In this document: one piece after another, positions 14,034 to 39,360 of the stretch
How positions within the stretch are numbered: the first letter of the stretch is position 1
Layout of the letters: each line of letters starts with the position of its first letter
Assembly (NCBI GenBank): GCA_963827025.1
Contig: CAWGZB010000005.1
Location: forward strand, 711,471-775,470
Reading direction: 5' to 3'
From: an uncultured Actinomycetota bacterium
GTDB lineage: Bacteria; Actinomycetota; Actinomycetes; Propionibacteriales; Nocardioidaceae
Length of the DNA stretch: 64,000 bases
Made by a program: the position numbers and the translations under genes
The notes under the pieces: model-generated
The model's input: only the letters and a program-made list of their open reading frames with translations
Database searches by the model: none
What the model was told of the DNA's origin: nothing

Positions 14034-14801
14034 GTGTCCGTCGAGCTCACCGACATCGCCCACGGAGTGGTGCGGGTCGCCTGGTCGCCCGAGCTGCAGG
14101 AGCGCGGCCTCGGCGAGTGCGCCAACGAGGTGCGTGAGGCCGTCGAGCGTGCCTTCAAGGGCGGCGCGACCCGGGTCGAGGCCCACGTCGACCCCGACGA
14201 CGGCATGGCCCAGCGAGTCGCGACGTTCTCGGGACTGATGCGGGAGGGCGTCGCCCGTGGGGTGGCCCACCGGATGGACCGCATCGTCTACGCCCGCCTC
14301 GCCCACGACGTGCCGCTGGAGGACCCCGAGGGCTTCCGGACGCTGCTGAACTCCTTCCTGCCGCGCAAGCGGGCGATCAGCCAGCTGTTGGTGCGCTCCA
14401 CCGACCAGCGGGTGCTGCTGTGCCAGCTGACCTACAAGCGGGACCTCGACCTGCCCGGTGGTGTGGTCGAGGTGGGCGAGTCCCCCCAGATCGCCGTGGC
14501 CCGCGAGGTGGAGGAAGAGCTCGGGCTCGTCCTCGAGCCCGGCCCGCTCGTCCTGACCGACTGGTTGCCGGCGTGGAGCGGGTGGGACGACGCGCTCTGC
14601 CTGGTCTTCGACGGCGGCGTCCACGACCCGTCGGTGCTCGAGGGCGTGGTCCGGCAGGAGCGGGAGATCCGGGGCGTCGGCTTCCACACCGTGGCCGAGG
14701 CCCGCGAGCGCTGCGCCGACTTCACCGTCCGCCGCATCGAGGCGGCCCTGCACAACGTCGGCGTCGGCGGCTCGTCGTACACCGAGAGCGGCCGAGGCTG
14801 A
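14034..14801 (+). CDS. NUDIX hydrolase with an N-terminal partial GNAT-like segment
   Basis: NUDIX box GGVVEVGESPQIAVAREVEEELGL (GX5EX7REUXEEXGU). The first ~100 aa (RGLGECANEVREAVERAF..ATRVEAHVDPDD..AQRV..FSGL.REG) resemble the motif-A-to-C-terminal half of RimJ/RimL-type acetyltransferases. Confidence 0.75.
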   Translation: MSVELTDIAHGVVRVAWSPELQERGLGECANEVREAVERAFKGGATRVEAHVDPDDGMAQRVATFSGLMREGVARGVAHRMDRIVYARLAHDVPLEDPEGFRTLLNSFLPRKRAISQLLVRSTDQRVLLCQLTYKRDLDLPGGVVEVGESPQIAVAREVEEELGLVLEPGPLVLTDWLPAWSGWDDALCLVFDGGVHDPSVLEGVVRQEREIRGVGFHTVAEARERCADFTVRRIEAALHNVGVGGSSYTESGRG

Positions 14802-14813
14802 CCCACCCCTGCC

Positions 14814-14887
14814 CATGTAACGCGCGGTTGTGGTGACCGAGTGCGCCCCCGGGGCGGCACTCAGCCTCCCCGACCCCGCGTTACATG
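14814..14887. other. Nested inverted repeat: an 11-bp perfect outer stem encloses a GC-rich inner hairpin
   Basis: CATGTAACGCG (14814-14824) and CGCGTTACATG (14877-14887) are perfect reverse complements 52 nt apart. The spacer contains GAGTGCGCCCCCGGGGCGGCACTC, which forms an imperfect hairpin. It lies between the NUDIX stop (14801) and the small Cys-rich ORF. Confidence 0.5.
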
Positions 14888-14942
14888 TGGGGGCGGGCGT
14901 GTGCTGGCGGGTCTTGTCGGTGGCGCGTGTCATGGTGCCGCC

Positions 14943-25385: not shown

Positions 25386-25447
25386 GTTCTCAGAAAAAAT
25401 GCGAGGCTAGATTCGGGTTCGCGCAGAGAACATGATGTAATCCTCAG
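25386..25447 (+). promoter_or_regulatory. AT-rich putative fas promoter/operator region
   Basis: This is the lowest-GC stretch in the area. Candidate -10 boxes are TAGATT (25408-25413) and TGTAAT (25434-25439, 8 nt before the fas ATG, which could give a leaderless mRNA). The inverted repeat GTTCTC (25386-25391) / GAGAAC (25426-25431) brackets TAGATT. There is no Shine-Dalgarno before the ATG. Confidence 0.3.
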
Positions 25448-28400
25448 ATGACTTCGTTCCTCACCTCGACCTCCACCCAGCCCGAGCCCGACCACCCGAC
25501 CGACCGGTCGACCGCCGCGCGCACCCTGGCCGAGGAGCTGGCCGCCGAGGAGTTCGTGCTCGCCTTCGCAGGACAGGGCGCGGACTGGCTGGACACCGTG
25601 CGCCGGCTGGCCGAGGAGGACCCCGCGGCCGGCCGGCTCGACCAGCTGGTCGCCGCCTCCGCGGCCGCGGTGGCGCCGGTCGACGGTGAGCTCGTCGCCG
25701 CCCTCCCCCGGCCCTTCGACCCGTCCGGGTGGTTGGGGGCGCAGCCTTCGCCGCAGGACCTGGTCACGCCCTCTGTCTCGGTGCCCGGCGTGCTGCTCAC
25801 CCAGCTGCTCACCCTCGACCACCTCGCCGTCGAGGGTCTCGACCTGGCGCACACCGCCCCGGCCGCCGCAGTCGGCCACAGCCAGGGCATCCTCGGTGTC
25901 GCGGCATTCGCCGGCCGCCGGGAGGGGACGGGCCATCGCGGTGACGTCGAGATCCTGGCGATCGCCCGACTCGTGGGCGCCGCCGCCACGCTCGTCGCCC
26001 GGCGCCACCGTCTCGCCGGTCACGGCCCGGACGGCCCCATGCTGGCCGTCAACGGGGCGACCCGCCCCGAGCTCGAGGCCCTGCTCCCCGACGGCGCCGT
26101 GATCGCGGCGGTGAATGGTCCGCGCCACCTGGTGCTCAGCGGCATGCCGCAGGCCCTGCGGCAGCTGCGTACGGCGGTCGAGCGTCGCCGCGACACGGAC
26201 CGCGCCGAGGTGGACCTCAAGCGACGGGGCGGCCGCCTCCTCGACCCCACCATGGAGCCCGTCGCCGCCGCCGCCGGTTTCCACCACCCCGGGCTGGCCC
26301 CGGCGGTCGACCTCGTCGGCGCCTGGGCCGAGCGCTGCGGGCTGGACCGTGAGCTCGCCGAGCACCTCGCCCGCGCGATCTGCGTGGAGCCGGTCGACTG
26401 GCCGCGGGAGCTGACCGACGCGGTCGGTGAGCGCACCCGCTGGGTCCTCGACGTGGGGCCCGGCGAGGTGACCGCACGCCTGACTGCGCGCGCGCTGCGT
26501 GGCCGTGGCGTCACCGTCGTGCCCGCCGCGACCCCCACGGGCCGTGACCAGCTGTTCACCGCCGGCGCCGAGGTGGAGCGCGCGGGTGACTGGTCGACGT
26601 ACGCCCCGCGACTCATCGACCGAGGCGACGGCCGCCCCGTGGTCGACACCGCGTTCACGCGGCTGACCGGCAAGTCCCCGATCCTGCTGGCCGGCATGAC
26701 GCCCACCACGGTGGACCCGGAGATCGTGGCGGCGGCCGCGAACGCCGGTCACTGGGCCGAGCTCGCCGGCGGCGGACAGGTCACCGAGGCCATCTTCGAG
26801 CGCAACGTCGGCCGGCTCACCGAGCTGCTCGAGGAGGGCCGGACGGCGCAGTTCAACGCACTCTTCCTCGACCCCTACCTGTGGAAGCTACAGGTCGGCG
26901 GCCGGCGGCTGGTCCAGAAGGCGCGGCAGGCCGGCGCACCCTTCGACGGGTTGGTCGTCAGCGCCGGCATCCCCGACCTCGAGGACGCGGTCGCGCTCGT
27001 CGACGACCTGCAGGAGGCCGGACTGACCCACGTGGTGTTCAAGCCCGGCACCGTGCGGCAGATCCGCCAGGTCCTCGCCATCGCCCGTGAGGTTGCCACC
27101 CCCCTGGTGGTGCACATCGAGGGCGGCGCGGCCGGCGGCCACCACTCCTGGGAGGACCTCGACGAGCTGCTGCTGGCGACGTACGCCGAGCTCCGGGAGG
27201 TGCCGGACCTGGTCGTGTGTGTCGGCGGCGGCATCGGTACGCCGGACCGGGCGGTGGAGTACCTGACCGGTCGCTGGTCGGTGGCCCACGGCGAGGCGCC
27301 CATGCCGGTGGACGGCGTCCTGGTCGGGACCGCGGCGATGGCCACCCGGGAGGCGACCACCTCGGCGCAGGTCAAGCACCTGCTCGTGCAGACCCCCGGC
27401 ATCGAGACCGGCTGGGTCGGCGCCGGCACCAGCGCCGGCGGGGTGACGTCGGGACGGAGTCAGCTGGGCGCGGACATCCACGAGGTCGACAACGCGGCGT
27501 CGCGGTGTGGCCGGCTCCTCGACGAGGTGGCCGGAGACGCCGAGGCCGCGCTGGCTCGCAAGGAGGAGCTGGTCGCGGCGATGGCCGGGACCTGCAAGCC
27601 CTACTTCGGCGACGTGGCCGAGATGACCTACGAGCAGCTGCTGCGCCGCTACCTCGAGCTCGCCGGCCCCCGGCCCTCGACGAGCCCGGTCACCGCAAGG
27701 GGTTGGCTGGACGTCACCTTCGCCGAGCGCTTCCAGGCGCTGCTCGACCGGGCGGTGGCCCGGCTGCACCCGGAGGCCTCGGGTCGGGTCCCGCGGATCG
27801 AGCTCGACCTCTCCGACCCCGCCGCTGCGGCGGCCGCCGTCGACACGCTCGTGGCACAGTTCCCGCAGGCGGCGGACTGCCGGCTGCACCCGGCCGACGT
27901 GCACCACTTCCTCGAGGTGTGCCGGCGCCTCGGCAAGCCCGTCACCTTCGTCCCGGTGATCGATGCCGACGTACGCCGGTGGTGGCGGTCGGACTCGCTG
28001 TGGCAGGCCCACGACGAGTCCTACGGGGCCGACCAGGTGATCGCCATCCCCGGCCCGGTCGCGGTCGGTGGGATCACCGAGGCCGACGAGCCGGTCGCCG
28101 ACCTGCTCGACCGCTTCGAGGCCGCGGTCGCCGACGCGGTCGGTGACGCCACACCGGCAGCTGCGGCCGCCAGCCGGACCACCGTCGGCGCGGACACCAC
28201 GCTGCTCGATGCGGCCTACGACGCCAGCGACGTGGTGTGGGCGGGCCGGGTCGTGCCGAACCCGCTGCACCGGCTGACCGACACCGGCGCCGAGCTGGTG
28301 CCGGACGGGCCTCGCGGGGCGGTGCTGCGGGTGCCGCTCGGCGGCGACGACCTGCGCCTGCGGCTTGATCTCTCGGGCGTGCCGCAGGGTCGCCTCCCCG

Positions 28401-31400
28401 TCGTCACCGAGGAGGCGGCGACCGCGGCGATGGGCGAGCTGCTCACCCGGACCGCCGGCGGAGAACTGCCCGAGCTAGTGGAGGCCCCCGCCGGCGGTTG
28501 CGCCACCCGGACGGTGGCGTGGTCCCCGGACCTCGCTGCCGACCACGCTGCCGTCACCGACCCGGTGCGCCGGCGCCGCGAGGAGCGGACGGAGCCGGAG
28601 ACCGGCACCGTCCCCGACGCGCTCGTGGGCCTGGCCTGGCCGGCCGTGTTCGCCTGCATCGGGCCGGTCGAGGGCCTGTTGGACCTCGTGCACCTCGACC
28701 ACCGGATCGAGATCGCGGGTCCGGAGGTGCTGGCCGGGCTCGAGCAGGCGAAGCCGGTCACCGTCACTGCGAGCCGGGCCGGGGTCACGCACACCGGCGC
28801 GGGTCAGGTGATCGAGGTGCACGGGGAGCTGACGTCCGCGGACCAGCAGCTCGCGACGCTGCACGAGCGGTTCCTCGTGCGGGGCCGGGGCGGCGCCGAG
28901 GATCTGACTGCACCGGGCTCCCTGGCGCCGGACGCCGTCGACCGCCCGCGGGCCCGGCTCGACCGCTGCACGCTCACCGCACCGGAGCACCTCGGTGCCT
29001 TCGCCGCGGTCAGCGGCGACCACAACCCGCTGCACACCGAGCTCGCCGCCGCCCGGCTCGCCGGGTTCGACAGCCCGATCGTGCACGGCATGTGGCTCTC
29101 CGCGGTGGCCCAACGTCTCGCTGCCGGCGCCGGGGCGGTGCACCGGCCGCGGCAGGTCCGCAGCTGGCTGGCCCGCTGGGTGGCGCCGCTCCTGCCCGGG
29201 CAGGAGGTCGAGGTCATCGTCGAGCGCACCGGGGTGCGCGCAGGCGACACCGTCGTCGAGGTGAGCTGCCGCGCCGCCGGAGAGCTGGTCATGGTCGCCG
29301 AGGCCGTGCTCGCCGCTCCCCTCACGGCCTACGCCTTCCCCGGTCAGGGCATCCAGAGCCAGGGCATGGGGCTCGACGCCCGCTCCCGCTCCGCCGCTGC
29401 CCGCGAGGTCTGGGACCGCGCGGACCGGCACACCCGCGAGGCGCTCGGCTTCTCGATCCTGGCCGTCGTACGCGACAACCCCACGGAGCTGGATGCCGAG
29501 GGCGAGGCGCACCGGCACCCCGACGGCGTGCTGTTCCTGACCCAGTTCACCCAGGTCGCGATGGCCACGCTCGCGGTCGCGCAGGTCGCCGAGCTGCGCG
29601 AGGCCGGCGTGTTCGTCGAGGGCGCGGTGAGCTGCGGGCACTCGGTCGGTGAGTACAACGCTCTGGCCGCGGTCACCGGCATCCTGCCGCTCGAGGCGCT
29701 GCTGGAGATCGTGTTCCGCCGCGGCATGGCGATGCACCACCTGGTGCCGCGCGACGCACAGGGGCGCAGCGACTTCCGGCTGGCCGCGATCCGCCCTGCG
29801 CAGGCCGGCCTGGCCGACGACGAGGTCACCGGCTTCGTCGACGAGTTGGCTGCGCGGACCGGCGAGTTCCTGCAGATCGTCAACTTCAACCTGCGCGGCT
29901 CGCAGTACGCCGTCGCCGGCACCGTCGCCGGTCTCGAGGCCCTCGAACGCGAGATCGAGCGGCGTCGGGCCGAGGCCGGTGGCAAGCCGGCCTTCATCCT
30001 GGTGCCGGGGGTCGACGTGCCGTTCCACTCCGAGCAGCTGCGGGCCGGCGTGCCGGAGTTCCGCGCCCGGCTCGAGGGGCTGCTGCCCGAGCGGATCGAC
30101 GCAGGCATGCTGGTGGGCCGCTACATCCCCAACCTGGTGCCGCGGCTGTTCACCGTGGACCGGGACTACGTCGCGGAGGTCGCAGCGTACGTCGACGCGC
30201 CGGCGCTCGACGCCGTGCTCGCGGACTGGGAGCAGGCCTGCGCCGACCCGGACCGGCTCGCGCGGACCCTGCTCGTCGAGCTGCTCGCCTGGCAGTTCGC
30301 CAGCCCGGTGCGCTGGATCGAGACCCAGGATCTGCTCCTCGGCTCTGCCGAGCAGGGCGGCCTCGGGGTCGAGCAGCTGGTGGAGGTCGGAGTGGCCAAC
30401 GCGCCCACCCTGGCCAACCTGGCCGCGCAGACGACGCGGCTGGCGTCGTTCACCGGGTCGGTCCCGCGCATCCTGAACTCCTCCCGCGACGCCCAGGCGG
30501 TCCTGGCCGAGGACGCCCCCCTTCTTGACCCCGACGACGAAGACCCGCGAGGCGTCGCAGATGTGCACGCCGAGGACGCCGAGGCGTCGCAGAAAGGCGG
30601 CGAATCGACCGGCGAGCACACATCTGCGACGCCTCAGCAGGCTGTCGACGCACATCCGCGACGCCTCGGCGAAGAGAGTGAGCGGCCGGCCGACCTCACC
30701 TTCACAGCGGCCGATGCGACCGCGCTGCTGGCGGCGCTGCGCACCAAGGTGCGGCTCGACCAGATCGGCCCGGCCGACACGATCGAGGCCCTCTGCGACG
30801 GCGTGTCCTCGCGGCGCAACCAGGTGCTCGTGGACCTCGGCGCGGAGCTCTCGCTCGGGGCGATCGACGGTGCGGCCGAAGCGGACTGGACCTCGCTCGC
30901 CGCGACCGTGGACAAGCTGGCCCGCGGCTACACGCCCTTCGGGCCCGTGCTGACCGAGGCGGTCGCCGAGCAGCTGCGCAGCTTCGCGCAGTCCTCGGGG
31001 GCACGTCCGTCGGCGATCACCGACCGGGTGCGCGACACCTGGCAGCTCGGGGCGGGCTGGGTGGCACACGTCTCGGCCGCCCTGGCCGCCGGCCTGCGCA
31101 GCGGCACGTCGACCCGCGGAGGCGACCTCGGGTCCGACCTTCCCGCGGACCTCGACGGTGCGGTCGACCAAACCGTCCAGCAGGTGGCGGCCGCCCAGGG
31201 CGTGCAGGTCGCACTCCCTGCGAGCGGGGGCGCGGAGGCCACCGTCGACGCAGCCGCGCTGGGTGAGCTGACGGCGGAGATCACCGGCCCCGACGGGGTT
31301 CTGGCGAGCACCGCACGGCACCTGCTCGGACAGCTCGGCATCCGCCCCGACGATGCATCCGCCGAGGACGACGGCGACCTCGACGCCGGCCTGGCGCGAC

Positions 31401-34400
31401 TGGTCGAGGCCGAGCTGGGGCCGGACTGGGCCCGCAAGGTCGCGCCCGCCTTCGACGCGGACCGTGCCGTCCTGCTCGACGACCGCTGGGCCTCGGCGCG
31501 TGAGGACCTCGCCCGGGCATGGACCGGGGACGAAGACGTGCGGGACCGTTCGTTCGCCAATCTCGACCCGGCCGCCTTGGCACAGGCCTCCTGGTGGCTG
31601 GCCCGTGCCCGCCGCGAGCAGCGCACCGACCTGGTCAGCTTCTACGGCGGCGTGCTCGCCCGCAGCGAGCAGGACCTGCCGTGGGCCGACGAGGTCGCCG
31701 TGGTGACCGGCGCCGCGCCGGGATCGATCGCCGCCGCAGTGGTGGCCGACCTGCTCCGCGGCGGCGCGACCGTGGTGGCCACGAGCTCACGGCTCGACGC
31801 CGAGCGGACGTCGTACTTCCGCGCCCTCTACCGCGACCACGCCACGACCGGCGCGGCCCTGTGGGTGCTGCCGGCCAACCTGGCGTCGTACGCCGACATC
31901 GACGCGTTGGTCGACTGGATCGCCGCGCCGGTGGTCGAGGAGGCCGGCGGCCAGCGCACCGAGCTGCGGCCGGGTCTGGACCCGACCCTGCTCTTCCCCT
32001 TCGCCGCCCCGCAGGTCCAGGGGTCGGCTGCCGATGCCGGCGCGCGCGCCGAGCTGGAGCTGCGGGTCCTGCTGCTGGGCGTGGAGCGCCTGGTCACGGG
32101 GCTGGCCGCGAAGGGTGCGGACCACCGGATCGGCCGGCGGGTGCACGTCGTGCTGCCCGGCTCCCCGAACCGGGGCCGCTTCGGCGGCGACGGAGCCTAC
32201 GGAGAGGCCAAGGCCGCGTTCGACGCGTTCGTGCAGCGTTGGCACGCCGAGACCGAGTGGGCACGCCGGGTCTCCCTGGTGCACGCCCAGATCGGTTGGG
32301 TGCGCGGCACCGGGCTGATGGGCCACAACGACCCGCTGGTGGACGCCGTCACGGCGCAGGGTGTGCGCACGTTCGCGCCCACCGAGATGGCGGCCGAGCT
32401 GCTCACGCTGTGCCGCCCGGGCGCGCGTGCCGAGGCAGCCGAGGCACCGCTCGCCGCCGATCTCACCGGCGGCCTGGACGAGGTCGAGCTCGACCTGGCC
32501 ACGCTGGCGAGGGAGACTCGTGCGTCCGTGGCTTCGACGAGCCCACTTTCGGAGGGCTCGACCACCGAGGCGGACGAAGCCACGGTGGAGGCGCTCACCC
32601 ATCCCGCCGGGTGGCGGACCCGGCAGCCGACGATGGCGTGGCCGGAGGTCACCTCCCGTCCCGAGGACATGGTCGTGATCGTGGGTGCCGGCGAGGTCGG
32701 CCCGCTCGGCTCCTCGCGCACCCGCTGGGAGCTCGAGGTGGAAGACCACCTCTCCCCTGCCGGAGTGCTGGAGCTGGCCTGGGTGACCGGCCGGATCGTG
32801 TGGGAGCACAACCCCGTGGCCGGCTGGCACGACGCCGCCACCGGTGAGCCACTCTCCGAGTCGCAGATCGTGGAGCGCTTCGCCGAGGAGATCGAGGCCG
32901 GCGTGGGCATCCGCCGGTTCGCAGACGACGGCGCGATGGTCGACGGCACCGCACCGCTGGTGCTTCCGGTCTTCCTCGAGGAGGACACCTCCTTCCTGGT
33001 CAGGACTCGTGCGGAGGCCGACGCCTTCCGCGAGGCCGACCCCGAGCGGACCCGCGTCACCGCGACCGCGGACGGCGACTGGCAGGTCACCCGGCTGGCC
33101 GGCAGCCAGGTGCGCGTGCCACGGCGGTTCAAGCTGTCCCGCTACGTCGGCGCCCAGGTGCCCGCCGGGTTCGACCCGGCTGTCTACGGGCTGGGGTCGA
33201 TGACCGAGTCGGTCGACCGGCTCGCGGCCTGGAACCTGGTGGCCACCGTGGACGCCTTCGTCGCCAGCGGGGTGGAGCCCGCGGACCTGCTGCGCTGGGT
33301 CCACCCGACCCGCCTGGCCAACACCCAGGGCACCGGGATCGGCGGGATGCAGTCGACGCGGAAGATGTACGTCGACGCGTTGCTCGGGGAGACCCCGCCG
33401 AACGACGTGCTCCAGGAGGCGCTGCCGAACGTGATCGCAGCCCACACGGTGCAGTCCTATCTCGGCGGGTACGGCGCCATGGTGCACCCCGTCGCCGCGT
33501 GCGCGACCGCAGCCGTGAGCGTCGAGGAAGCCGTCGACAAGATCCGGCTGGACAAGGCGAGCGTCGTGGTCGCCGGTGGGTTCGACGACCTCGGCATCGA
33601 GGGCATCCTCGGCTTCGGCAACATGAGCGCCACCGCCGACACCGATCAGATGCTCGCCCGTGGGATCGAGGAGCGGCACGTGTGCCGGCCCAACGACCGC
33701 CGGCGCGGCGGGTTCGTCGAGGGACAGGGCGGCGGCACCGTCCTCCTGGCCCGCGGCGACGTGGCCGCCGACCTCGGCCTGCCGGTGCTCGGCGTGGTCG
33801 CCTACGCCGGGTCGTTCGCCGACGGCGTGCACACCTCGATCCCGGCGCCGGGCCTCGGTGCGCTGGGAGCGGGTGTCGGCGGCGCGGACTCGCCGCTGGC
33901 CCGCGGCCTCGCCGAGCTCGGGCTGGGTGCCGACGACGTGGCCGTGGTCTCCAAGCACGACACCTCCACCGCCGCCAACGACCCCAACGAGTCGCGCCTG
34001 CACGAGCGGCTGGCCGCGGCCGTCGGCCGCACGGACGGAGCGCCGCTCTACGTGGTCAGCCAGAAGTCGCTGACCGGCCACGCCAAGGGCGGTGCCGCGG
34101 CCTTCCAGCTGGTCGGGCTCTGCCAGCTGCTCGCCGACGGGGTGGTGCCGGCCAACCGCGGCCTGGACTGCGTCGACGACGCGCTGGCGGAGAATCCGCA
34201 CCTGGTCTGGTTGCGCGAGCCACTGCGGACGGGGCCGCTGCGGGCGGGGCTGCTGACCAGCCTGGGCTTCGGGCACGTCTCTGCGCTGCTTGCGGTCGTG
34301 CACCCTGGTGCCTTCGTGGCGGCGCTCGAAACGGGGCGGCGCGAGGCCTGGCTGCGCCGGGCGACTGACAGGCTGAAGGCCGGCGAGCAGCGCCGCCTGG

Positions 34401-34558
34401 AGGCGATGCACGGCGGTGACCCGCTCTACCGTCGACCGGAGCGCCGACGGTTCGCCGAGACGGACATCGACGTCGTGCGCGACGACGAGAGCGCGATGCT
34501 GCTCGACCCGCGGGCGCGCCTGGGCGAGTCCGGGGTCTACGCGAGGTCGGCCCGATGA
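25448..34558 (+). CDS. fas: Type I fatty acid synthase (actinobacterial FAS-I; AT-ER-DH-MPT-ACP-KR-KS)
   Basis: Uninterrupted 3036-aa ORF. AT GHSQG (25874-25888). FMN/TIM-barrel ER region (SPILLAGMTPTTV...HIEGGAAGGHHS). Hot-dog DH (VSGDHNPLHT, ~29010). MPT (AFPGQGIQSQGMG, GHSVGEYNAL ~29638). ACP (DGVSSRRNQVLVDLG, Ser codon 30806-30808). KR Rossmann fold (VAVVTGAAPGSIAAAV, ~31690). KS active-site Cys in VAACATAAVS (33500-33502), plus SKHDTSTAANDPNE and KSLTGHAKGGAAA. Confidence 0.95.
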   Translation: MTSFLTSTSTQPEPDHPTDRSTAARTLAEELAAEEFVLAFAGQGADWLDTVRRLAEEDPAAGRLDQLVAASAAAVAPVDGELVAALPRPFDPSGWLGAQPSPQDLVTPSVSVPGVLLTQLLTLDHLAVEGLDLAHTAPAAAVGHSQGILGVAAFAGRREGTGHRGDVEILAIARLVGAAATLVARRHRLAGHGPDGPMLAVNGATRPELEALLPDGAVIAAVNGPRHLVLSGMPQALRQLRTAVERRRDTDRAEVDLKRRGGRLLDPTMEPVAAAAGFHHPGLAPAVDLVGAWAERCGLDRELAEHLARAICVEPVDWPRELTDAVGERTRWVLDVGPGEVTARLTARALRGRGVTVVPAATPTGRDQLFTAGAEVERAGDWSTYAPRLIDRGDGRPVVDTAFTRLTGKSPILLAGMTPTTVDPEIVAAAANAGHWAELAGGGQVTEAIFERNVGRLTELLEEGRTAQFNALFLDPYLWKLQVGGRRLVQKARQAGAPFDGLVVSAGIPDLEDAVALVDDLQEAGLTHVVFKPGTVRQIRQVLAIAREVATPLVVHIEGGAAGGHHSWEDLDELLLATYAELREVPDLVVCVGGGIGTPDRAVEYLTGRWSVAHGEAPMPVDGVLVGTAAMATREATTSAQVKHLLVQTPGIETGWVGAGTSAGGVTSGRSQLGADIHEVDNAASRCGRLLDEVAGDAEAALARKEELVAAMAGTCKPYFGDVAEMTYEQLLRRYLELAGPRPSTSPVTARGWLDVTFAERFQALLDRAVARLHPEASGRVPRIELDLSDPAAAAAAVDTLVAQFPQAADCRLHPADVHHFLEVCRRLGKPVTFVPVIDADVRRWWRSDSLWQAHDESYGADQVIAIPGPVAVGGITEADEPVADLLDRFEAAVADAVGDATPAAAAASRTTVGADTTLLDAAYDASDVVWAGRVVPNPLHRLTDTGAELVPDGPRGAVLRVPLGGDDLRLRLDLSGVPQGRLPVVTEEAATAAMGELLTRTAGGELPELVEAPAGGCATRTVAWSPDLAADHAAVTDPVRRRREERTEPETGTVPDALVGLAWPAVFACIGPVEGLLDLVHLDHRIEIAGPEVLAGLEQAKPVTVTASRAGVTHTGAGQVIEVHGELTSADQQLATLHERFLVRGRGGAEDLTAPGSLAPDAVDRPRARLDRCTLTAPEHLGAFAAVSGDHNPLHTELAAARLAGFDSPIVHGMWLSAVAQRLAAGAGAVHRPRQVRSWLARWVAPLLPGQEVEVIVERTGVRAGDTVVEVSCRAAGELVMVAEAVLAAPLTAYAFPGQGIQSQGMGLDARSRSAAAREVWDRADRHTREALGFSILAVVRDNPTELDAEGEAHRHPDGVLFLTQFTQVAMATLAVAQVAELREAGVFVEGAVSCGHSVGEYNALAAVTGILPLEALLEIVFRRGMAMHHLVPRDAQGRSDFRLAAIRPAQAGLADDEVTGFVDELAARTGEFLQIVNFNLRGSQYAVAGTVAGLEALEREIERRRAEAGGKPAFILVPGVDVPFHSEQLRAGVPEFRARLEGLLPERIDAGMLVGRYIPNLVPRLFTVDRDYVAEVAAYVDAPALDAVLADWEQACADPDRLARTLLVELLAWQFASPVRWIETQDLLLGSAEQGGLGVEQLVEVGVANAPTLANLAAQTTRLASFTGSVPRILNSSRDAQAVLAEDAPLLDPDDEDPRGVADVHAEDAEASQKGGESTGEHTSATPQQAVDAHPRRLGEESERPADLTFTAADATALLAALRTKVRLDQIGPADTIEALCDGVSSRRNQVLVDLGAELSLGAIDGAAEADWTSLAATVDKLARGYTPFGPVLTEAVAEQLRSFAQSSGARPSAITDRVRDTWQLGAGWVAHVSAALAAGLRSGTSTRGGDLGSDLPADLDGAVDQTVQQVAAAQGVQVALPASGGAEATVDAAALGELTAEITGPDGVLASTARHLLGQLGIRPDDASAEDDGDLDAGLARLVEAELGPDWARKVAPAFDADRAVLLDDRWASAREDLARAWTGDEDVRDRSFANLDPAALAQASWWLARARREQRTDLVSFYGGVLARSEQDLPWADEVAVVTGAAPGSIAAAVVADLLRGGATVVATSSRLDAERTSYFRALYRDHATTGAALWVLPANLASYADIDALVDWIAAPVVEEAGGQRTELRPGLDPTLLFPFAAPQVQGSAADAGARAELELRVLLLGVERLVTGLAAKGADHRIGRRVHVVLPGSPNRGRFGGDGAYGEAKAAFDAFVQRWHAETEWARRVSLVHAQIGWVRGTGLMGHNDPLVDAVTAQGVRTFAPTEMAAELLTLCRPGARAEAAEAPLAADLTGGLDEVELDLATLARETRASVASTSPLSEGSTTEADEATVEALTHPAGWRTRQPTMAWPEVTSRPEDMVVIVGAGEVGPLGSSRTRWELEVEDHLSPAGVLELAWVTGRIVWEHNPVAGWHDAATGEPLSESQIVERFAEEIEAGVGIRRFADDGAMVDGTAPLVLPVFLEEDTSFLVRTRAEADAFREADPERTRVTATADGDWQVTRLAGSQVRVPRRFKLSRYVGAQVPAGFDPAVYGLGSMTESVDRLAAWNLVATVDAFVASGVEPADLLRWVHPTRLANTQGTGIGGMQSTRKMYVDALLGETPPNDVLQEALPNVIAAHTVQSYLGGYGAMVHPVAACATAAVSVEEAVDKIRLDKASVVVAGGFDDLGIEGILGFGNMSATADTDQMLARGIEERHVCRPNDRRRGGFVEGQGGGTVLLARGDVAADLGLPVLGVVAYAGSFADGVHTSIPAPGLGALGAGVGGADSPLARGLAELGLGADDVAVVSKHDTSTAANDPNESRLHERLAAAVGRTDGAPLYVVSQKSLTGHAKGGAAAFQLVGLCQLLADGVVPANRGLDCVDDALAENPHLVWLREPLRTGPLRAGLLTSLGFGHVSALLAVVHPGAFVAALETGRREAWLRRATDRLKAGEQRRLEAMHGGDPLYRRPERRRFAETDIDVVRDDESAMLLDPRARLGESGVYARSAR
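30544..30672. repeat. Copy A of the 32-bp-periodic inverted-repeat element, lying in-frame inside fas
   Basis: Forward units are 30548-30566 (cgaggcgtcgcagatgtgc) and 30575-30593 (gacgccgaggcgtcgcaga). Reverse units are 30616-30635 (gcacacatctgcgacgcctc) and 30650-30670 (gcacatccgcgacgcctcggc). Same-arm units are exactly 32 bp apart. The centre contains cgaatcg, as in copy B. Outer boundaries are approximate. Confidence 0.85.
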
Positions 34559-35016: not shown

Positions 35017-36976
35017 GACGCTCACCAGTGTCCTGCCGGCCCTGGTGGTCCGACTGCTGGTCGACGACGGCGCCGAGGTGGCCGCGGGGCAACCGGTCGC
35101 CGTCACCGAGACGATGAAGTGCGAGCAGACCCTGACCGCGCCGACGGCGGGGCGGCTGCGCTGGCGCTGCGCCGCCGGTGACGTGGTCGAGGCCGCCGAG
35201 GTGCTCGGCGACGTCGAGGCAGTGACCGACGTGCCGGCGACCCCGGGGCGGGCCCGTCCGCGGCGCCCCCTGACACCGCAGCAGGTGGTCGACCTGGTGT
35301 GCGGGCCGGGGGCGGCTCCGGAGCTCGGCGCGGCGGCGCGCAGCGGGACGTTCGTGGAGCACGACCTCGTCCCCTCCGACGTCACCCGGGCGACCCCGGA
35401 CACCGGCGACCGGCTCCGCTCGGTGGCCGACGACGCGGCCTTCCGACGCGAGTGCGGCGTGATGGTCGGGGTGATGACCCATCGCCTCGACGGTCACCCG
35501 CAGGGCGTCTCCCGGGTGTGGATCGGCGGCGACCCTGCCCGCTCCATGGGTGCGGTCAGCGAGGCGGAGTGCCGGCGGATCATCGCCGCGATCGACCTCG
35601 CCGAGCGGCTCGGCGTACCCCTGGAGTGGGTGGCGGTCTCCGCGGGTGCCCGGATCGCCTGGGACACCGGCACCGAGAACATGGACTGGTGCGCGGCGGT
35701 GGTCGCCAAGCTGGTCCGGTTCACCCAACGCGGCGGCCAGGTCGTCGTGGTGGTCAACGGCATCAACGTCGGCGCCCAGTCCTACTGGAACGCCGAGGCC
35801 ACGATGCTCGGTCACCACCAGGGCATGCTGGTGATGCTGCCGGAGCAGGCGATGGTGCTCACCGGCAAGCGCGCGCTGGCGCTCAGCGGCGGTGGCAACC
35901 ATCGCGACGACGCGGCGATCGGCGGGTACGACGAGGTGATGGGCCCCAACGGCCAGGCGCACCACCGCGCCGCCGACCTGGTGGAGGCCTACCGCCTGGT
36001 GTTCACCCACCACACCCTGTGCACCCGCCGGCGCGACGAGCAGCCGGCCGCGGTGGAGACGGTCGATCCGCTCGACCGTGACATCAGCATCGACCCCTAC
36101 CCGGAGGCCGAGCCGTTCCACTCCGTCGGGGACATCCTCGACGATCTCGCCCACCCCAGCCGCAAGCAGGCCTTCGCGATCCGGCCGGTGATGGGGGCCG
36201 TCGTCGACCGGGACGCGCCCGTCCTGGAGCGGTGGACCGACATGGCCGACGCTGCGGGCACGGTGGTGTGGGACAGCCGCCTCGGCGGGCTGCCCACCAC
36301 CGTCATCGGGATCGAGTCGCGCCCGCACAGCGCCGACACCGGCGACCACTGGCTCTCCGGGGCGACCCTGCACCCGGAGGGCGCCCGCAAGGTGGCACGT
36401 GGGATCAACGCCGCCAGAGGCAACCGGCCGGTCGTGGTCCTGGCGAACCTGGCCGGCTTCGACGGCAGCGCCCGCTCGATGCGCGGGCGGCAGCTGGAGT
36501 ACGGCGCCGAGATCGCCCGCGCCGTCACCAACTTCGAGGGTCCGTTGGTCGTGGTCGTGCTCGGGCGCTTCCACGGCGGCGCCTACGTGGTGTTCAGCAA
36601 GGCGTTGAACCCGAACGTCTCGATCGTCGCGCTCGAGGGCACCTACGTCTCGGTGATCGGTGGCGACTCGGCGGCGGGCGTGGTGTTCGCCGGCGAGCTG
36701 AAGAAGCGGGTGGCCGCGGCTCTGCAGGCCGATCCCGGCGCCGACCGCGAGGCGGTTCACCGCCGGGAGCGCGACCTGCTGGCTCGGGAGTTCGACCGGG
36801 TGCACGACGTACGCCGGGCCGCGCAGGTCGGCTCCATCGACGAGGTCATCCGGCCGCGGGAGGTGCGCGCGACGGTGGCGCGACTGCTCGGGGTACCGCA
36901 GGCGCGGCCCGACCTCGACGGCGCTCAGGAGGCGGAGCGGTTCCGCGCGGCGTCAGCCTCGGCGGCGAGCAGGTAG
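35009..36976 (+). CDS. Biotinyl (BCCP-like) domain fused to a eukaryotic-ACC-type carboxyltransferase domain; no biotin carboxylase domain
   Basis: ATG at 35009 overlaps the acpS end (ATGCCTGA). The N-terminal ~72 aa form a biotinyl/lipoyl-type domain with ETMKCE (Lys codon 35117-35119). The rest aligns by eye to the yeast/animal ACC CT: VSAGARIAWD (cf. ANSGARIG), LGGLPTTVIGIESR (cf. LGGIPVGVIAVETR), VVLANLAGFDGSARSM (cf. ILANWRGFSGGQRDM), FHGGAYVVFSKALNPN (cf. LRGGSWVVVDPTIN). Confidence 0.8.
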   Translation: MPETLTSVLPALVVRLLVDDGAEVAAGQPVAVTETMKCEQTLTAPTAGRLRWRCAAGDVVEAAEVLGDVEAVTDVPATPGRARPRRPLTPQQVVDLVCGPGAAPELGAAARSGTFVEHDLVPSDVTRATPDTGDRLRSVADDAAFRRECGVMVGVMTHRLDGHPQGVSRVWIGGDPARSMGAVSEAECRRIIAAIDLAERLGVPLEWVAVSAGARIAWDTGTENMDWCAAVVAKLVRFTQRGGQVVVVVNGINVGAQSYWNAEATMLGHHQGMLVMLPEQAMVLTGKRALALSGGGNHRDDAAIGGYDEVMGPNGQAHHRAADLVEAYRLVFTHHTLCTRRRDEQPAAVETVDPLDRDISIDPYPEAEPFHSVGDILDDLAHPSRKQAFAIRPVMGAVVDRDAPVLERWTDMADAAGTVVWDSRLGGLPTTVIGIESRPHSADTGDHWLSGATLHPEGARKVARGINAARGNRPVVVLANLAGFDGSARSMRGRQLEYGAEIARAVTNFEGPLVVVVLGRFHGGAYVVFSKALNPNVSIVALEGTYVSVIGGDSAAGVVFAGELKKRVAAALQADPGADREAVHRRERDLLAREFDRVHDVRRAAQVGSIDEVIRPREVRATVARLLGVPQARPDLDGAQEAERFRAASASAASR

Positions 36977-37578
36977 GCGGTCAGCAGGCGCTTGAGCTCC
37001 ACCACCGCGTCCGGGTGCGACTGCCCGTCGCGGATGGAGAAGTTCAGCATCGAGTAGGTGACGTGCACGAGCACCTCGGCGATGGCCTGCCGGTGGGTGA
37101 TCTTCGAGCCGGGAGTCAGGGGCGCCAGCAGCCGGGTCACCTCGGTGGCCAGCTCGCGCTCGTGCTCGGCGGCGACCACGCGGGTGGGTGGGGTCGCCTG
37201 CATCGCCAGCCACACCGCCCGCCGGGAGGGGTCGGTACGCCACAGCCCCGCGAGGTGGTCCAGCAGCTTCTCCAGCAGCTGAGCCCAGTCCAGGCTGGGG
37301 ATCTCCGCCGCGAACTTGTCCAGCTCCTTCTTGACGTTCTCGGTGTCGAGGCGGTCGAGCTCGCAGACGATGGCGTACTTGTTGCCGAAGAATTGGTAGA
37401 GCGACCCGATCGGCACACCCGCCCGCAGCGCCACCTGCTCGGCGGTGAACGCCTCGAACCCGACTTCGACCAGCAGCGCCCGCGCAGCCCGGAGGATCTC
37501 GTCGAAGCGGCGGCGGCTGCGCTCCTGGGCCGGTCGGCGACGCGGCAGGAAGTCGGTCAGCTCGCTGGGCTTGGTCAT
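36925..37578 (-). CDS. TetR/AcrR family transcriptional regulator
   Basis: MTKPSELTDFLPRRRPAQERSRRRFDEILRAARALLVEVGFEAFTAEQVALRAGVPIGSLYQFFGNKYAI (HTH). Its 3' end overlaps the convergent BCCP-CT gene by 52 bp. Its start lies 16 bp from repeat copy B. Confidence 0.85.
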   Translation of the reverse strand: MTKPSELTDFLPRRRPAQERSRRRFDEILRAARALLVEVGFEAFTAEQVALRAGVPIGSLYQFFGNKYAIVCELDRLDTENVKKELDKFAAEIPSLDWAQLLEKLLDHLAGLWRTDPSRRAVWLAMQATPPTRVVAAEHERELATEVTRLLAPLTPGSKITHRQAIAEVLVHVTYSMLNFSIRDGQSHPDAVVELKRLLTAYLLAAEADAARNRSAS

Positions 37579-37593
37579 GTGCCCACGGTAAGG

Positions 37594-37776
37594 GACGCCG
37601 AGGCGTCACAGATGTGCGTCCGACGTACGCCGAGGCGTCACGGATGTGCATCCCAGGCACGCCCAGGCGTCACGGATGTGCAGTACCGAATCGGCCCCCA
37701 CCACAGGCCAGTCCGTATTGCCGCATATCTGCGACGCCTCGCCGCTCTCCGCGCGCACATCTGCGACGCCTCGGCG
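37594..37776. repeat. Copy B of the 32-bp-periodic inverted-repeat element (3 forward + 2 reverse units); it fills the intergenic region
   Basis: Forward units are 37594-37617 gacgccgaggcgtcacagatgtgc, 37626-37649 tacgccgaggcgtcacggatgtgc and 37658-37681 cacgcccaggcgtcacggatgtgc. A 41-nt centre contains accgaatcgg. Reverse units are 37723-37744 gcatatctgcgacgcctcgccg and 37755-37776 gcacatctgcgacgcctcggcg. Unit starts are exactly 32 bp apart within each arm. Confidence 0.9.
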
Positions 37777-37779
37777 GAA

Positions 37780-39360
37780 TCAGTCGAGGGTGATCCTGAC
37801 CTTGCCGGAGCGATAGACCCGCAGGGTGCCGTGCGCGAAGTCGGCGTACCGGCCGCGCCTGAAGCGCTTCGGTTTGGTCTCGGGCAGCCCGAGGACCGAC
37901 TTGGTGCCGCCGCGGCGCAGGTAGACACGCATCACCCGGCCCCAGAGCTCGTGCGCGCCGGTGTCCGGGCTCCACCAGATCCGTCCGTGCGCGAAGCGCC
38001 GCACCCGGCCACCGCTCACCGCACGCTCGCGGGTCCTGGCGCTGCCCAGCCGCCCCTTGGCGCCGCCGAGCTGCTGCCACCGCTTCGTGATCGGGCTGCC
38101 CGTGGCCGGCGCCGGCGCCGGCGCGGGCGCGGGGGTGGCGGAGCCGCCGCTGCCGCCGCTGCTGGTGCCACCGCCCGCGGTCGGCCCGAAGCTGAACCAG
38201 TCCGAGCGCAGGCCGAAGGTGAAGCGGAAGGTGTTGCCGCTGACCGTGACGTCGGACCGGGAGCCGTCGAGGGTCATCTTCTCCACCCGGCCGTACCAGT
38301 CACCGTTGCCGTTGCGCTGGGTGACCACGATCCGCTTGAGCTTACCGAGCGCCGGCCAGGCCGACTGGATCCGGGAAGCTGCGAGCTTCGTGGTCCAGGT
38401 GTGCATCGGGTTGCCGCTGAAGTCGTCGTAGGGGTCGGCCTGGGCCGGCAGGTACGGCACGCTCCCGGCAGAGGTCCAGCCGCCGCTGGAGGAGCCAAAC
38501 TGGGTGAACGCCGGGCGGCCGCCGTAGGTGAGGACCTCCCCCGCGGTCGCGTCGACCGCCGCGTTGCCCCGGGAGTCCTCCGAGCTCAGACCCCCGTAGA
38601 CCTGGCAGGACGTGGTGTCGCAGGTCTGGTAGTAGCGGGTCGCGTGGTCGCTGCGGTCGCGCGCGGCATAGGTCCGGGCGGCCACCGCTTGCGCCTGCAC
38701 CGCGGCGGGCAGCCACGATGCCGGCATCTCCCGAGGCACCACGCCCTTGACGTAGTCCTCCAGGGGCAGCACGTTCACGGTGTCCTTGTTGACCAGGCGG
38801 AGCGCTCCGCGATAGATGCGCGAGCCGGAGCCCAGCCGCAGGGTGAGCGGCACCTTCGCCTCGAACTGCGCCGCCCCGTCGAGCGTGCGCCAGGCGTGCC
38901 AGGAGCCCTGGTGGTACTCCACCGCGGTGCCGCCGCTCGCGGGGCGCAACCGCCAGGAGGTGGCACCCACGTCCGTGGGCACGGGGTACGACGACCCGCC
39001 AGACACCGCCCGGACCCGCAGCCCCTTGGCCGGATCGACCTGGACGTTGTTGTCGCTGTCGGCGGTGATCAGCACCCGGATCTCGTCCCCGGCCGAGCCG
39101 AAGCTCGTGCCCGGGTAGTAGAAGCGGAGGATCTGCCGGTAGCCGAGTCCCTGACGCGCGGCCCCCTGGGCGCCGTACTGGGACATGCCGTGGCCGTGGC
39201 CGTAGCCGTGTCCGGTCACCGTGAAGGTGCCGCCGGAGGGGACGGTGTAGACCTGCGAGACCGAGCGCGAGGCGACGGCCGGCTCGCCCGGCGCCATGGT
39301 CGCGGCGACCGCGACCGCCAGGACCGCTCCGGTTGCCGCGCGGCGGACCTGCTGTGACAT
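37780..39360 (-). CDS. Secreted SpoIID/LytB-domain protein with C-terminal LGFP-like repeats
   Basis: Signal-peptide-like N-terminus (MSQQVRRAATGAVLAVAVAATMAPGEPAVA). SpoIID core GHGYGHGHGMSQYGAQGAA..YRQILRFYYPGT and YLKGVVPREMP...EAVQAQAVAARTYA. The tail has two repeats resembling LGFP (LGSARTRE...HGRIWWSP; LGLPETKP...HGTLRVYR). Confidence 0.85.
   Translation of the reverse strand: MSQQVRRAATGAVLAVAVAATMAPGEPAVASRSVSQVYTVPSGGTFTVTGHGYGHGHGMSQYGAQGAARQGLGYRQILRFYYPGTSFGSAGDEIRVLITADSDNNVQVDPAKGLRVRAVSGGSSYPVPTDVGATSWRLRPASGGTAVEYHQGSWHAWRTLDGAAQFEAKVPLTLRLGSGSRIYRGALRLVNKDTVNVLPLEDYVKGVVPREMPASWLPAAVQAQAVAARTYAARDRSDHATRYYQTCDTTSCQVYGGLSSEDSRGNAAVDATAGEVLTYGGRPAFTQFGSSSGGWTSAGSVPYLPAQADPYDDFSGNPMHTWTTKLAASRIQSAWPALGKLKRIVVTQRNGNGDWYGRVEKMTLDGSRSDVTVSGNTFRFTFGLRSDWFSFGPTAGGGTSSGGSGGSATPAPAPAPAPATGSPITKRWQQLGGAKGRLGSARTRERAVSGGRVRRFAHGRIWWSPDTGAHELWGRVMRVYLRRGGTKSVLGLPETKPKRFRRGRYADFAHGTLRVYRSGKVRITLD

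Follow-up and report, generated by a model that had tools for sequence, protein, structure and literature searches.

The locus and its repeat array

The window, by which we mean the whole 64,000-nucleotide stretch of actinobacterial DNA analyzed here, carries on its minus strand a SpoIID/LytB-domain gene followed by a TetR-family regulator gene, and most of the gap between them is taken up by a repeat array that we call A1. The features of the locus are as follows.

36925..37578, minus strand: TetR-family regulator gene (TetR_N and TetR_C_15/22 domains), downstream of A1 on the transcript; not a FasR equivalog
37585..37590, minus strand: TACCGT, a hexamer resembling a -10 element, 6 nt ahead of the tetR start codon
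37595..37777, no strand: array A1, three units, a 41-nt center and two inverted units in 32-bp phase
37595..37617, plus strand: core of A1 unit 1, ACGCCGAGGCGTCACAGATGTGC; the 3'-most unit of the sense (minus) transcript, adjoining tetR
37627..37649, plus strand: core of A1 unit 2, ACGCCGAGGCGTCACGGATGTGC
37659..37681, plus strand: core of A1 unit 3, ACGCCCAGGCGTCACGGATGTGC; unpaired with the other arm and lying in the inner part of the hairpin
37682..37722, no strand: A1 center, 41 nt, nonrepeated and unlike the centers of other arrays
37723..37745, minus strand: A1 inverted unit 4, read on the minus strand as GCGGCGAGGCGTCGCAGATATGC
37755..37777, minus strand: A1 inverted unit 5, read on the minus strand as CCGCCGAGGCGTCGCAGATGTGC; 2 nt past the spoIID stop
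37780..39360, minus strand: SpoIID/LytB-domain gene, upstream of A1 on the transcript

On the spoIID side the array leaves 2 nt to the stop codon (37780-37782), and on the tetR side 16 nt to the ATG (37578); it covers 183 of the 201 intergenic bases (37579-37779), slightly less than the entire gap that the original prediction had assigned to it. Direct reading, a repeat search and TRF all agree with the three forward and two reverse units of that prediction; TRF gives a period of 32, 2.8 copies and 89% matches. The predicted starts of the reverse units were exact, those of the forward units were off by one base, and the proposed 32-bp spacing inside each arm holds exactly, with each period divided into 23 conserved and 9 variable nucleotides rather than about 24 and 8. 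The two arms are terminal inverted repeats of the kind found in miniature inverted-repeat elements (MITEs), being 80% complementary over 54 nt. A 23-mer search allowing up to 3 mismatches gave 5 matches in the window, with 0.00 expected from 100 shuffles, and a 16-mer core gave 12 with 0.85 expected; the repeat pattern of A1 is far beyond chance.

No sigma-70-type site was found by a consensus promoter scan around A1. The hexamer TACCGT is conserved in a second genome (contig L116, described below) as TACCGT-N7-ATG, and we infer that it is the promoter -10 of a leaderless tetR mRNA, a reading that leans on what is generally known of actinobacterial promoters.

A second array inside the fatty-acid synthase gene

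About 7 kb from A1, the window holds a smaller array of the same units, A2, within the gene for type I fatty-acid synthase (FAS-I).

25448-34558, plus strand: FAS-I open reading frame, 3036 aa, containing A2 about 5 kb inside the gene
30544..30672, no strand: array A2, 2+2 units in 32-bp phase around a 19-nt center
30544-30566 and 30576-30598, plus strand: forward units of A2
30618-30640 and 30650-30672, minus strand: inverted units of A2

The 129 bp of A2 form 43 codons that are in frame and free of stops, and they encode the linker between the malonyl/palmitoyl transferase (MPT) and acyl carrier protein (ACP) domains, PRGVADVHAEDAEASQKGGESTGEHTSATPQQAVDAHPRRLGEE, which aligns to the flexible Ala/Pro-rich MPT-ACP linker in the solved mycobacterial FAS-I structures. 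This linker is 44 aa long in the window FAS, 43 of them from A2; nine FAS fragments from relatives lack A2 and have an unrelated linker of 27 to 29 aa. In the window genome, array sequence makes up the FAS-I MPT-ACP linker. The segment that precedes the ACP domain is thereby almost entirely repeat-array encoded. A2 has kept the reading frame, lies in a permissive region and is absent from the orthologs, as is seen for in-frame intragenic insertions of Rickettsia palindromic elements. The presence of a second copy in a FAS gene 7 kb away indicates a genomic repeat resembling REP elements or MITEs rather than a locus-specific regulatory site.

Copies in other genomes

The original prediction called for additional copies of the unit, and these were indeed found, one more array in the window and others in three further genomes. 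The array is thus a member of a dispersed repeat family, of which four genomes have yielded at least five arrays in three kinds of setting (a gap between codirectional genes, a gap between convergent genes, and the interior of a gene, in frame). On contig L116, from a farmland metagenome, the order spoIID-array-tetR is the same as in the window; its array has 3.5 units in forward and 4 in reverse orientation, again phased at 32 bp, and its SpoIID and TetR are 74% and 95% identical to those of the window. On a Logan contig, L121 (SpoIID 77% identical), two units follow right from the spoIID stop, and the contig terminates within the array. The array thus starts 0 to 14 nt past the spoIID stop in all three genomes; its last unit lies 16 nt from the tetR ATG in the window and 30 nt from it in L116. 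Comparison of the locus among relatives, as the original prediction had proposed, therefore shows the array present in L116 and L121; no units occur in about 100 kb from relatives, comprising four contigs with SpoIID identity of at most 64% (L117; L122, from Marmoricola sp. URHB0036; L123; L124) and two reached via FAS fragments (L119 and L120). The copy at the 3' end of spoIID is, as this comparison dates it, older than the split of the three species.

The array-bearing and array-less genomes also differ in gene order. In L116 as in the window, spoIID and tetR are neighbors joined by the array, and tetR is convergent with a 675-aa BCCP/carboxyltransferase gene of the fas-acpS operon. In L117, L122 and L124, the distant relatives whose sequence covers the locus, tetR precedes a single 1830-aa carboxylase gene, and spoIID and tetR are separated by 2 to 6 kb of other genes, which places the array at a clade-specific gene-order junction. 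An exact-sequence look-up of the window TetR and SpoIID returned no identical record; SpoIID homologs, the named ones being Marmoricola and Nocardioidaceae, assign the organism to the Nocardioidaceae.

The remaining genome is represented by L118, an unrelated 4.5-kb metagenomic contig, which was the single further contig recovered when 241 million metagenome records were scanned for two phased units. It carries 5 forward and 3 reverse units between convergent genes, one of the TIGR03085 family and the other of unknown function, whose 3' ends flank the array; the arms, up to 59 nt long, are 85 to 91% complementary. A 28-nt direct repeat, 79% identical with the last 11 nt exact (CTGTGAGAACC), lies around a 480-bp segment with this array (L118 904-931 and 1384-1411), and its left copy includes the TIGR03085-family stop codon. 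This repeat may represent a long target duplication or may be fortuitous, the chance expectation in 700 bp being about 0.06 exact 11-nt repeats.

A 17-mer pattern run over genome contigs gave at least 115 single chance matches, and two units occurred at none of the matches listed. Neither BLAST of the array against plasmid and phage collections nor pattern matching on viral contigs produced a match; in Rfam there was none at the gathering level or at E<=1. A 307-aa query made from the three reading frames of the L118 array matched no protein at E<=1. The 59-aa open reading frame of the window had one match among 1.84 billion representatives, P0241; this 524-aa "protein" of approximately 48-aa repeats is apparently the translation of a different kind of DNA repeat and has no relation to the arrays. 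Nothing relevant came up in the literature on the core sequence or on REP and MITE elements of Nocardioides or Actinobacteria. Two arrays in the 64-kb window and one further contig in 241 million metagenome records leave a high copy number unproven. Judging by this distribution, the family is restricted to a narrow lineage of the Nocardioidaceae.

Anatomy and evolution of the unit

Alignment in register of 27 units from the four genomes gave a consensus made of a 23-bp core, CCGCCGAGGCGTCGCAGATGTGC, and a weak 9-nt spacer. The small palindrome of the original prediction (ACGCC-GA-GGCGT, followed by CACRGATGTGC) is present, its left half being less conserved; the invariant part of the core reads GAGGCGTC.C.GA, with R at positions 14 and 16. 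Each element is built from 2 to 5 tandem units per arm, with the arms inverted around a center of 19 to 66 nt.

Between genomes, cores are 0.84 to 0.92 identical and spacers 0.31 to 0.37, close to the 0.30 expected at random from base composition, and identity at spoIID third-codon positions between these genomes is 0.65 to 0.67. With silent sites largely diverged and cores still 84 to 92% identical, the cores must be held by some constraint. The centers (19, 41, 45 and 66 nt) show no similarity above shuffles; a CGAATCG common to the A1 and A2 centers was considered as a sign of homology and rejected, as it falls within the shuffle range. As read from these alignments, the cores are conserved, and the spacers and centers have drifted to random sequence.

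Every one of the 18 intervals between units measures exactly 32 bp. L116 has three successive 32-bp copies that match each other at 100%, spacers included, and L118 has four that nearly do, which shows recent tandem duplication; the differing numbers of units per arm (3+2, 2+2, 3.5+4 and 5+3) imply that the arms expand and contract independently. The number of units per arm has thus changed since the three species split, and the identical 32-bp runs point to slippage or unequal exchange as the route.

Folding of the arrays

The long hairpin that the original prediction had placed on the minus-strand transcript is supported by folding of the arms, and all four complete arrays fold far better than shuffled sequences on both strands.

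A1, sense (minus) strand: -119.7 kcal/mol, z -6.3
A1, antisense (plus) strand: -113.5 kcal/mol, z -6.9
L116 array, sense strand: -224.5 kcal/mol, z -11.2
L116 array, antisense strand: -162.7 kcal/mol, z -6.3
A2, sense (plus) strand: -75.0 kcal/mol, z -5.3
A2, antisense strand: -87.8 kcal/mol, z -7.2
L118 array, plus strand: -234.1 kcal/mol, z -12.0
L118 array, minus strand: -241.4 kcal/mol, z -12.7

Four single 32-nt units folded as DNA scored z -1.3 to +0.8 relative to shuffles. Unit-level hairpins were accordingly rejected, and since single units are unstructured, the small palindromes inside the unit are not hairpins and the structure comes from the inverted arms only. Pairing of the arms from the outside inwards, over all arrays, comprises 210 Watson-Crick pairs, 14 G.U and 7 A.C pairs (sense strand) and 11 mismatches of other kinds; double changes that compensate each other between the arms were not seen in the paired units. 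At the spoIID-tetR site (window and L116), the transcript strand has 14 G.U and 2 A.C pairs, whereas the coding copy A2 has the opposite bias, with no G.U and 5 A.C pairs. These wobble counts fit selection favoring a hairpin on the spoIID transcript, with no such selection, or selection against one, within the fas mRNA; the G.U asymmetry represents only about 5 to 6 independent substitutions and could be mimicked by strand-biased C-to-T mutation. A general bias toward RNA of the sense strand was rejected, as only the spoIID-tetR site displays it and A2 has the reverse; A1 shows no strand difference in z-score.

The suggestion that the hairpin is a terminator did not hold for the classical intrinsic (rho-independent) type: a terminator scan of 37300-38000 returned no site, and the hairpin is followed by CCCUUACCGUGGG, with no U-tract. 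In L116 (11753-11881), the sense-strand spacers of the tetR-proximal arm are G runs (GGGGGTGG, GGGTGTGGGG, GGGGGTGGG and GGGGTGGGGCGG) that might form G-quadruplexes just upstream of tetR; A1 does not have them. Elsewhere in the window, a 100-bp palindrome with a perfect center (14801-14900; 50-nt arms, 72% complementary; -63.6 kcal/mol, z -3.5) directly follows a NUDIX gene; it has no second copy in the window and no relation to the 32-bp units.

Comparison with known repeat systems

Among known systems, the arrays recall the REP, BIME and REPIN elements of Proteobacteria, which include the GTAG- and CGTC-tagged REP superfamilies (PMC3733652; PMC3116915). They share with these short noncoding repeats placement at gene 3' ends, inverted copies that form larger hairpins, and the capacity to persist by vertical inheritance; the core of the 32-bp unit even contains a CGTC tetranucleotide. 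REP families lie near the 3' ends of open reading frames, between unidirectional or convergent genes and occasionally inside open reading frames, where their clusters encode stretches of 43 to 82 aa (PMC3733652). The arrays match this placement, with A1 and the L116 and L121 arrays closely behind the spoIID stop, the L118 array between convergent genes and one copy forming a coding linker. The likeness ends at the unit. A REP unit is a stem-loop of 20 to 40 bp, and CGTC REPs have a stem of 8 to 9 bp, a loop of 4 to 5 nt and a CCA tail (PMC3733652), whereas single 32-bp units do not fold and fall outside the strict definition of a CGTC REP. The arms here consist of 2 to 5 head-to-tail units, an arrangement described as negligible for CGTC REPs, and the survey of REP hosts lists no actinobacterial phylum (PMC3733652). 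Compared with REPINs, the hairpin is present, but the centers are unrelated in length and sequence, unlike the conserved REPIN spacer.

Rickettsia palindromic elements and intragenic REPs resemble A2 in being in-frame palindromic repeats translated in a permissive region of an essential gene; the Rickettsia elements differ in sequence and host phylum, and one coding copy is known here. Pneumococcal BOX elements are composed of distinct A, B and C modules of which only B (boxB) is reiterated, and mycobacterial MIRUs are direct tandem repeats without inverted arms. Both are likewise modular, with variable numbers of tandem copies, positions in gaps between codirectional genes and resizing by unit slippage; in the arrays described here, the identical type of unit is reiterated in both inverted arms. 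With MITEs the arrays share a small size (129 to 314 bp), inverted-repeat ends, a noncoding nature, hairpin folding and dispersal (PMC10969869). In contrast to MITEs, no target-site duplication (at A1, A2 and L116), conserved internal sequence, parent IS or evidence of recent movement was found for them.

The comparison extends to transposon ends with several transposase-binding sites and to plasmid iterons, which likewise have direct sites of about 20 bp in each arm, bound by protein in those systems, with spacing near whole helical turns. The TnsB sites of Tn7, the L1-3 and R1-3 sites of Mu and the ends of Tn402/Tn552 are not strictly periodic and come with TG/CA termini and 5-bp duplications, and plasmid iterons accompany a rep gene or an origin. 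By contrast, no TG/CA ends, 5-bp duplications, rep gene or origin are seen with the arrays. A CRISPR array (repeats of 24 to 48 bp, spacers of similar or greater length, one orientation) was rejected in view of the 9-nt spacers, the inverted arms and the copy inside an open reading frame.

DISCUSSION

Our results describe an inverted array of 32-bp units that is retained at the 3' end of spoIID in three species and recurs at unrelated loci. On balance, and with modest confidence, we favor the explanation that the arrays belong to an old, vertically kept family of modular palindromic repeats resembling REPINs and MITEs, which resizes by 32-bp slippage and at the spoIID locus supplies a 3' hairpin for the transcript. 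The family may have arisen and spread as a selfish nonautonomous palindromic element, comparable to REPINs, BIMEs, MITEs and Rickettsia palindromic elements, with its cores kept through recognition by a trans-acting protein or through conversion among copies. A1 would be part of the spoIID transcript and form a long interrupted hairpin just past the stop codon; this hairpin could limit read-through into tetR and end or protect the 3' end of the spoIID mRNA, while tetR might be expressed from its own -10 at the array edge. As A1 lacks a U-tract, termination there can only be surmised. No mobilizing enzyme, parent element or pair of empty and filled sites was found in the window genes, the relatives, or the plasmid, phage and viral collections. 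Counted against this explanation, retention at one locus across diverged species and a 32-bp spacing that is strict although the spacers are randomized fit a host function, for example protein binding, better than a purely selfish element.

Several alternatives place the function of the array at the locus itself. The array could be the operator of the adjacent TetR, acting in autoregulation, with the fas copy belonging to a shared lipid-synthesis regulon; of the only two arrays in 64 kb, one does immediately precede tetR and the other is within fas, every relative examined has this TetR linked to acetyl-CoA carboxylase and FAS genes, and the last unit adjoins the putative tetR -10. We rejected this reading, which we regard as highly improbable, because L117, L122 and L124 encode a TetR 82 to 83% identical to that of the window, with a near-identical helix-turn-helix, and have no units near tetR. 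Near the L118 array, moreover, the 4.5-kb contig carries neither a TetR nor a lipid gene, and the fas copy lies 5 kb from the gene start. A different sequence is present in those relatives.

L117 14236-14380, L122 18184-18330 and L124 18011-18150: palindrome AATGCGAGA-N4-GCCTCGCATT, between tetR and the large acetyl-CoA carboxylase gene
Window 25389-25397: half-site AAATGCGAG, in an unusually A+T-rich stretch upstream of fas

This palindrome is probably the real operator of the conserved TetR (82 to 95% identical across the group), in which case TetR would be a FasR-like lipid regulator, though not a FasR equivalog. We likewise see little prospect for a purely local RNA element that expanded in situ and attenuates or terminates the spoIID-tetR transcript, with the other copies meaningless or convergent. 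The position of the hairpin right behind spoIID in three species, the wobble bias toward the sense strand at this site and the 62 kcal/mol by which the L116 sense strand is more stable than the antisense strand speak for it, but the same 23-nt core and 32-bp period at three unrelated loci exclude convergence, and covariation, a U-tract and an Rfam match are all missing.

Other alternatives look to mobility or to a protein. The original prediction had compared the array with a miniature nonautonomous derivative of a multisite transposon such as Tn7, Mu or Tn402, an idea that we take to include Tn552-type ends and mobilization in trans, and the several direct subrepeats in each inverted arm, the unequal arms (3+2, 3.5+4 and 5+3), the copies at unrelated loci and the 11-nt exact direct repeat (28 nt at 79%) flanking the 480-bp array segment of L118 would suit such an origin. 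We nevertheless think it a poor candidate. The outer termini are (N)CGCCGAGG...CCTCGGCG(N) and not TG...CA, and no target-site duplication, of 5 bp or any other length, was found at A1, A2 or L116 (three of the four complete arrays). The centers are unrelated, and perfectly periodic copies, some of them 100% identical with their spacers, argue for local duplication and not for transposon ends of fixed design. The array has kept its locus in species whose synonymous sites have largely diverged, and plasmid, phage and viral collections held no match. The 30 genes of the window covered by a Pfam scan are core metabolism (glycogen/GlgE, methylmalonyl-CoA mutase, FAS and beta-oxidation) and include neither a transposase nor a RAYT (IS200-like tyrosine transposase); nor was a single arm adjoining a transposase gene seen in the sequences examined. 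Somewhat better placed, though still unlikely in our judgment, is the possibility that the arrays are phased platforms of double-stranded DNA for a sequence-specific protein, such as a nucleoid-associated or wrapping regulator, with one site per 23-bp core. At 32 bp, about three helical turns, all sites would lie on one face, and the inverted arms would allow bridging or looping. Cores conserved against spacers at the random level, none of 18 spacers changed in length, and pairing that tolerates A.C and other mismatches with no compensatory changes suggest that the core is read as sequence, most simply by a protein, and that pairing is not what is constrained; the single units have no structure of their own, and the array abuts the putative tetR -10. 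Set against this, no promoter is expected where two of the copies lie, one of them 5 kb into an open reading frame and the other between convergent genes; the tetR ATG is not at a constant distance from the last unit (16 nt in the window, 30 nt in L116); a constant period also follows from tandem duplication of a 32-bp unit with no need for selection; and there is no candidate protein. We give a similarly small chance to the broader proposal that the 23-bp core is the site of a dedicated protein and the arrays a new actinobacterial class of replicator or binding platform. As replicators, they might form a REPIN-like system with its own non-RAYT mobilizing enzyme; as platforms, they could be chromosomal iteron-like arrays with three-turn phasing, long kept by the host and even recruited as a FAS-I linker.

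Whether selfish in origin or kept by the host, small dispersed palindromic repeats are a known kind of element; what sets this family apart is a nonpalindromic 32-bp unit reiterated in both inverted arms. The build is unusual in joining a sharply conserved 23-bp core to free spacers of fixed length in a module that is not itself a hairpin. Such arrays also break short-read assemblies, as the L121 contig that ends within one illustrates, and create spurious open reading frames in high-G+C genomes. The surveys of small dispersed palindromic repeats consulted here deal mostly with Proteobacteria and name no Actinobacteria as hosts; the present family shows that the Nocardioidaceae carry one. The family offers a compact case for the long retention of a repeat at one locus, for reading of its core by a protein, and for the absorption of a palindromic repeat into an essential enzyme.
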